Shown one piece after another: positions 11,066 to 11,081 of a stretch of 64,000 bases of DNA. The stretch is from NCBI RefSeq assembly GCF_044647545.1, contig NZ_CP172818.1, one strand, 5' to 3'. The position numbers and the translations under genes are program-made. The DNA comes from Escherichia coli (GTDB lineage: Bacteria; Pseudomonadota; Gammaproteobacteria; Enterobacterales; Enterobacteriaceae). A model generated the notes under the pieces. It did not search any database, was not told where the DNA came from, and saw nothing but the letters and a program-made list of their open reading frames with translations. Each line of letters opens with the position of its first letter. Positions within the stretch are counted from its first letter, which is position 1.

Positions 11066-11081
11066 TTCACGTAACGTTCAC
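11066..11081. promoter_or_regulatory. cre-tag-like direct repeat TTCAC-N6-TTCAC (candidate CreB site) in maeB-talA divergent region
   Basis: ttcac gtaacg ttcac read directly; talA is a reported CreBC regulon member (memory). Confidence 0.4.

Follow-up and report, generated by a model that had tools for sequence, protein, structure and literature searches.

The closest described counterparts of the site analysed here are the promoters controlled by CreBC. The direct repeat TTCACnnnnnnTTCAC, known as the cre/blr-tag, is presented as the signature of CreBC-regulated promoters in a paper that credits it to Avison et al. 2001 (PMC3660660), and the same TTCAC-N6-TTCAC motif is used by Aeromonas BlrA as the 'blr-tag' (PMC3660660). 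According to reviews, the members of the regulon were identified by searching the genome for the tag, and ackA-pta, talA and creD are among seven genes activated by CreBC while malE is the single repressed gene. Another paper reports that talA-tktB is positively regulated by CreBC in minimal medium, and a genomic-SELEX dataset for CreB exists in RegulonDB.

The maeB/talA spacer carries the published talA cre tag

Within the window, by which we mean the whole 64,000-nucleotide stretch of Escherichia coli DNA that was analysed, a perfect TTCAC-N6-TTCAC with its two TTCAC repeats 11 bp apart is located in the spacer between the divergent genes maeB and talA (Table 1), with tktB downstream of talA. 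The sequence-only reading had described this site as an exact match to the CreB-type direct repeat, 13 bp from the start of maeB and about 260 bp upstream of talA, which it named as a CreBC regulon gene. The match is indeed exact, as TTCACGTAACGTTCAC fits the consensus TTCACnnnnnnTTCAC (PMC3660660), and the spacing to talA is right (260 nt between tag and ATG), while the 13 bp given for maeB against the 12 nt that separate tag and ATG is a matter of counting convention. The membership of talA agrees with the literature on the Cre regulon. What was overlooked is that this exact site is the already published talA tag. The 288-bp maeB/talA spacer is identical to that of K-12 MG1655, despite the window strain and K-12 being only ~97.5% identical across maeB-talA-tktB, and this identity together with the exact consensus match makes the site the published talA cre tag and its detection a rediscovery. 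Coordinates in NC_000913.3 equal window coordinates plus 2,567,324, placing the K-12 equivalent of the tag at 2,578,390-2,578,405. According to secondary sources, the feature is one of the eight tags on which the Cre regulon was built and is already known; what is added here is its context, namely its position in the maeB 5'UTR, its distance from the talA start and its conservation outside E. coli.

Table 1. Positions of the tag and of the features of maeB and talA in the window
Feature	Position	Strand	Remarks
maeB CDS	8774..11053	-	ORF, RefSeq name; NADP-dependent malic enzyme; ATG 12 nt from tag
maeB Shine-Dalgarno AGGAA	11061..11065	-	abuts proximal half-site (GTGAA/AGGAAC)
cre tag TTCACGTAACGTTCAC	11066..11081	+	co-oriented with talA; unique in window
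candidate 16-codon leader ORF MCATLWAGAVAHTLYL	11078..11128	-	SD-like GGTGAT/AGGG; runs through hairpin
terminator-like element	11082..11115	-	ends exactly where tag begins
maeB transcription start	11171..11174	-	two published experimental start-site maps
maeB -10 element TATATT	11186..11181	-	
talA promoter region	11253..11281	+	conserved -10 and mapped start 11281
talA CDS	11342..12292	+	ORF, RefSeq name; transaldolase A; first gene of talA-tktB

Apart from the match at 11066-11081, neither strand of the 64-kb window holds a perfect TTCAC-N6-TTCAC. Tags with one mismatch are present at background level, since five are observed against 4.05 expected. Shuffling yields 0.09 perfect tags per 64-kb window (at least one in 9 of 100 shuffles), and the composition-based estimates are ~8 perfect tags per 4.64-Mb genome, ~1 over all intergenic DNA and ~0.0008 in the 288-bp spacer. 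Taken per whole window, a perfect tag is unremarkable given the chance expectation; its placement in an intergenic spacer beside a published Cre-regulon gene is no chance pattern. When compared by eye, the 16-mer bears no convincing resemblance to the CRP (TGTGA-N6-TCACA) or FNR (TTGAT-N4-ATCAA) consensus.

Comparison with the other tags of the regulon

The original description from 2001 is said to have named eight genes: creD, talA, malE, ackA, yicR/radC, nudF/trgB, cbrA/yidS and cbrB/yieI. In K-12 each of the eight regulon loci has one perfect tag that is co-oriented with the assigned gene, with distances from tag end to ATG of 18 bp (malE), 22 bp (nudF), 46 bp (cbrA), 47 bp (cbrB), 61 bp (creD), 88 bp (yicR), 260 bp (talA) and 319 bp (ackA). 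The talA tag, being upstream of talA and co-oriented with it, shares this arrangement with the other seven, the CreBC dependence of talA itself being taken from the literature. At creD, the reference CreB-activated promoter, the perfect tag is likewise co-oriented with its target; however the tag there stops 61 bp short of the ATG and ~20 bp short of a -10-like CATAGT, whereas the talA tag is 260 bp away from its gene.

The second instructive comparison is with malE, where the tag covers +11..+26 relative to the malEp start and thus falls inside the gene's own 5'UTR (start from the supplement of PMC2760140). The malE and maeB arrangements are alike in that the tag is downstream of the transcription start, within the 5'UTR and near the ATG (18 vs 12 bp). 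They differ in orientation, the malE tag being co-oriented with malE while the tag in the maeB leader, at +94..+109, is opposite to maeB. A roadblock type of action calls for a tag downstream of the start of its target, and this is the case for maeB. As malE is repressed and has its tag in the 5'UTR, it provides a precedent for repression by a tag so placed.

Two other tags sit close to a divergent gene. The ackA tag (positions 536-551 of locus L085, in the yfbV/ackA spacer) is 2 bp from the ATG of divergent yfbV, and the yfbV SD sequence GAGGTGA falls within it; the cbrA tag (positions 3316-3331 of locus L088, in the yidR/cbrA spacer) is 5 bp from the ATG of divergent yidR. Counting the talA tag (maeB), three of the eight tags thus adjoin the start codon of a divergent gene, the others being those of ackA (yfbV) and cbrA (yidR). 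The talA and ackA tags additionally share a 3' flank, A(A/T)ATAAAG, which reads TTCACAAATAAAG at talA (11082-11090) and TTCACATATAAAG at ackA (552-560 of L085) and resembles a -10 element placed right after the tag.

The talA promoter is distant from the tag

The start of talA (b2464) has been mapped at -61 (PMC2760140 supplement), corresponding to window position 11281. A sigma-S-type extended -10 element, TGCTATGCT (TG-C-TATGCT, with C at -13), is found at 11251-11259 on the + strand and is nearly invariant, as is the block GTCTGCTATGCTTTTT in the talA promoter region across 7 genera. Since talA is transcribed by RpoS, a -10 element of this type fits the known dependence, and we infer that it belongs to the sigma-S promoter of talA. 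The element predicts a start near 11266, compared with the published 5' end at 11281. The centre of the tag precedes the talA start by ~190-210 bp (it is at about -207 relative to the mapped 5' end), a distance at which ordinary -35-proximal activation as at creD is impossible, and the talA tag thus lacks the promoter-proximal position seen at creD, cbrA and cbrB.

The tag is embedded in the maeB leader

Two experimental maps locate the maeB start. One gives it at -118 with ATTATATT as the -10 element (PMC2760140 supplement), and the other at 2576520 in older coordinates, with a 5'UTR of 121 nt and the value 611 in its second column (PMC3415461 supplement). With the start at 11171-11174, the tag lies inside the transcribed leader and covers +94..+109 of the maeB mRNA. 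An alternative promoter derived from conservation, with a -10 element at 11127-11133 and a start near 11120, is ruled out by the two maps, which put the conserved blocks in the maeB 5'UTR. A sigma-70 consensus scan of 10950-11450 returned nothing, including beside the tag; the -35 of the actual maeB promoter is weak, and this promoter is placed by the published start sites alone.

Read on the maeB strand, the transcription start is followed in turn by conserved leader blocks, a hairpin with U-rich tail (CACUUUAUUU), the tag, AGGAA and AUG. The hairpin, TGTGGGCAG-GGGCTG-TTGCCCACA at 11115..11092, has a stem that a scan identifies as a perfect 8-nt inverted repeat, and it is followed by the U-rich tail CACTTTATTT at 11091..11082. 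Table S6 of Mendoza-Vargas 2009 includes the maeB leader among predicted transcriptional attenuators. Folding indicates that a hairpin followed by a U-run recurs with differing sequence in Salmonella, Citrobacter, Leclercia and E. cloacae, and in these four taxa the GC-rich hairpin runs directly into UUUUU(U)GA, a tail that overlaps the distal half-site of the tag. The local hairpin alone stands out, as the fold of the whole maeB leader does not exceed shuffled sequence in stability (z = -0.14). Scanned against Rfam, 10800-11600 matched no RNA family credibly, and Adams 2021, which mapped 3' ends, does not mention maeB in its supplements. On the downstream side, the block ACGTGAAAGGAA at the maeB SD sequence is invariant in 10 aligned relatives.

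The leader also contains a candidate ORF (Table 1). In E. coli it stops at the UGA within the distal half-site, and in several species it ends at the UGA of either one or the other GTGAA half-site, so that the position of the stop varies. The AUG and SD-like sequence are conserved in the sampled Escherichia, Salmonella and Citrobacter, with the exception of a locus labelled C. freundii (L096) and of C. werkmanii (L001), while conservation of the peptide stops after its first residues, and no CDS is annotated at this position in NC_000913.3. As a reason for the constraint on the leader, the candidate ORF is suggestive only.

Further upstream, relatives (L003-L005 and L091-L095) have TTGTTAT-N6-ATAACAA, a perfect inverted repeat that covers the -35/spacer region of the maeB promoter; its E. 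coli counterpart at 11190-11212 on the - strand is the degenerate inverted repeat GTGTTATAGGATTATTACCA. This repeat could be the binding site of some maeB regulator.

The perfect tag is nearly invariant in E. coli and degenerate in its relatives

The region 10900-11500 is present at an identity of at least 99% in 5424 of 5426 complete E. coli genomes, and the 35 bp at 11054-11088 are identical in 5415 of them. Somewhere in a 60-bp query 618 E. coli records differ, and in the three variant genomes that were sampled the tag is intact (3 of 3). Both one-mismatch E. coli genomes sampled have a G>T polymorphism at 11089, 8 nt from the tag, a common change put at about 600 genomes, and one strain (L100) has changes in the leader hairpin, with G>A at 11096 and a 1-bp deletion in the loop.

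Among the taxa compared, the perfect talA/maeB tag is confined to E. coli (TTCACGTAACGTTCAC, 0 mismatches). Salmonella and Leclercia share TTCACGTATCGTTCAA with 1 mismatch, and 2 mismatches are present in E. fergusonii (TTCACGTATCGTTCGA), C. koseri and C. amalonaticus (TTCACGTATCGATCAA), C. sedlakii (TTCACGTAACGATCAA) and E. cloacae (TTCACGTTTCGGTCAA). The tag is also degenerate in Superficieibacter, and no tag with at most one mismatch was found in Cronobacter, Mangrovibacter, Enterobacter sp. Ag1 or the locus labelled C. freundii. The creD tag served as a control: it is identical at 16 of 16 positions in E. albertii, Salmonella, C. koseri and C. amalonaticus and is 61-62 bp from the ATG in all four, though nearby creC codons vary. 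The creD tag thus behaves as a deeply conserved operator. In the CreBC-carrying enterobacteria sampled the creD tag is conserved as a perfect tag, whereas the talA tag is not.

The pattern of conservation at the talA/maeB tag points elsewhere. Conservation of the N6 spacer is about equal to that of the TTCAC repeats. In C. werkmanii, Citrobacter sp. FP75 and two other enterobacteria (L001, L002, L007 and L012), talA is not the divergent neighbour of maeB, and ACGTGAAAGGAA is nonetheless kept before the maeB start in both Citrobacter genomes and in L007, though not in L012. Retention without an adjacent talA ties this block to maeB and not to talA, and together with the conserved N6 it points to a constraint on the maeB leader rather than to CreB. 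Seen in these alignments, the talA/maeB tag gives the impression of an older part of the maeB leader that turned into a perfect tag in the E. coli lineage.

Expression under CreBC activation

An Avison-lab preprint reports only six genes raised more than 10-fold in a CreC-activated mutant, and treatment with colicin M induces creD, cbrB, cbrA and cbrC by log2 3.8-5.7 at 30 min. Neither talA nor maeB is listed in either of these two datasets. The main and supplementary colicin-M differential-expression tables contain none of talA, tktB, maeB, ackA and malE. Absence from these lists suggests that any effect of CreBC on talA or maeB is small or condition-specific, and for maeB it counts weakly against a large effect. 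In the searchable literature, nothing relevant was found on a link between CreB and maeB or malic enzyme, or on binding of CreB at 11066-11081; PPTP-seq and massively parallel reporter papers make no mention of CreB or maeB.

Interpretation

The explanation that we favour, and hold to be probable with a good deal of doubt, is that the tag is a genuine but secondary operator of the OmpR/PhoB type for CreB~P, which mildly activates talA-tktB and, if it does anything to maeB, impedes it. The direct repeat would be bound by a dimer of the phosphorylated OmpR/PhoB-family regulator CreB, so that under CreBC-activating conditions (minimal medium, fermentative growth, pyruvate/lactate-type carbon) CreB~P would come to occupy the tag. 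The outcome expected from published work would be a modest, condition-dependent rise in talA-tktB transcription, which given the position of the tag might be achieved through a tag-proximal promoter yet unmapped, through looping or by an indirect effect. For maeB, a CreB dimer bound at +94..+109 would be an obstacle to the transcribing RNA polymerase. Because the tag is in the maeB leader beside the hairpin and the ribosome-binding site, occupancy should impede maeB if anything, and by analogy with repressed malE the bound protein may somewhat lower maeB expression. The sequence match, its position and orientation, the start sites and the pattern of conservation are observed, the motif and the place of talA in the regulon come from the literature, and we infer both the occupancy of 11066-11081 by CreB and any effect on maeB. 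The suggestion of the sequence-only reading that the tag may act on maeB in addition to, or in place of, talA gains circumstantial support from the 5'UTR position and from malE, which leaves that reading partly supported and an action of CreB on maeB a reasonable proposal.

The conservation data also accommodate an explanation that we consider rather unlikely, in which the site is mainly a maeB leader element whose match to the CreB tag is recent or fortuitous. On this account the stretch ...UUUUUGA(A/U)CGAUACGUGAAAGGAAC would be maintained as the end of the U-tract, as the source of leader-ORF stop codons (the UGA in each GTGAA) and as the flank of the maeB ribosome-binding site, two substitutions in E. 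coli would have given rise to the perfect tag, and the CreBC dependence of talA would be weak or indirect. It is consistent with the ancestral-looking TTCACGTATCGTTCAA common to Salmonella and Leclercia, with an N6 as conserved as the repeats, and with retention of the block in C. werkmanii and Citrobacter sp. FP75, although talA does not adjoin maeB there; the hairpin and U-run ahead of the block in many genera and the ending of the candidate leader ORF in the distal or proximal GTGAA of several species fit as well, as do the large distance from the tag to the talA promoter and the missing talA in the expression lists. Yet only ~1 intergenic tag is expected by chance and this one is found beside a reportedly CreBC-responsive gene, where it is co-oriented with talA like every regulon tag is with its own gene and is fixed in essentially all E. 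coli. The account is moreover not exclusive of an operator, as one site can serve an RNA leader and bind CreB.

The placement of the tag in the mapped maeB 5'UTR, 10 nt past the hairpin and abutting the SD sequence, could alternatively mean that it acts chiefly on maeB, although we find this quite unlikely. CreB~P bound at +94..+109 would then block the elongating RNA polymerase after the hairpin, perhaps enhancing termination there, and active CreBC would mean that less malic enzyme is made, with talA affected secondarily, for example through altered divergent transcription. Precedent comes from malE, which is repressed and has its tag within the 5'UTR, and the proximity of the ackA tag to the yfbV ATG and of the cbrA tag to the yidR ATG is of the same kind. 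Weighing against such a role, the tag is oriented with talA and not with maeB, the searchable literature yielded no report of CreBC-dependent maeB expression, and maeB is outside the colicin-M lists despite strong induction of the core Cre genes. To be of much consequence, a roadblock ~100 bp past the start site must be tightly bound. An extension of this reading, equally improbable in our estimation, takes the talA and ackA tags to be operators in the leader and translation-initiation regions of maeB and yfbV that repress by blocking elongation. That the maeB tag would in addition cooperate with the conserved leader terminator and leader ORF, the activation of talA and ackA being secondary, is a part of this extension that we hold to be just as doubtful.

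As the correct rediscovery of a regulatory site from 2001, the tag adds little. Should CreB act on maeB, then CreBC, a poorly understood system, would gain a link to the malate/pyruvate node and to NADPH supply, a connection that would stand alongside those to acetate overflow (ackA-pta) and to the pentose-phosphate branch (talA-tktB). If the talA and ackA tags are in truth operators of maeB and yfbV, NADP-malic enzyme would join the CreBC carbon-overflow response and the assignment of the regulon would have to be revised.

Relation to known operators

The geometry and conservation of the tags suggest a Cre regulon split between a deeply conserved, promoter-proximal core (creD, cbrA and cbrB/C) and distal tags (talA and ackA), of which the talA tag is perfect only in E. 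coli and the ackA tag is placed here by its distance. The direct function of the distal talA and ackA tags deserves to be tested again. Operators of the wider family offer a further point of reference. The pho boxes replace the -35 element and are located ~10 bp upstream of the -10; unlike them, the talA tag has no promoter partner beside it in the sigma-70 scan. The organization of the site itself is shared, as OmpR/PhoB-family operators such as the pho boxes, and likewise the BlrA blr-tag, also consist of a direct repeat with an 11-bp period that suits a head-to-tail winged-helix dimer.
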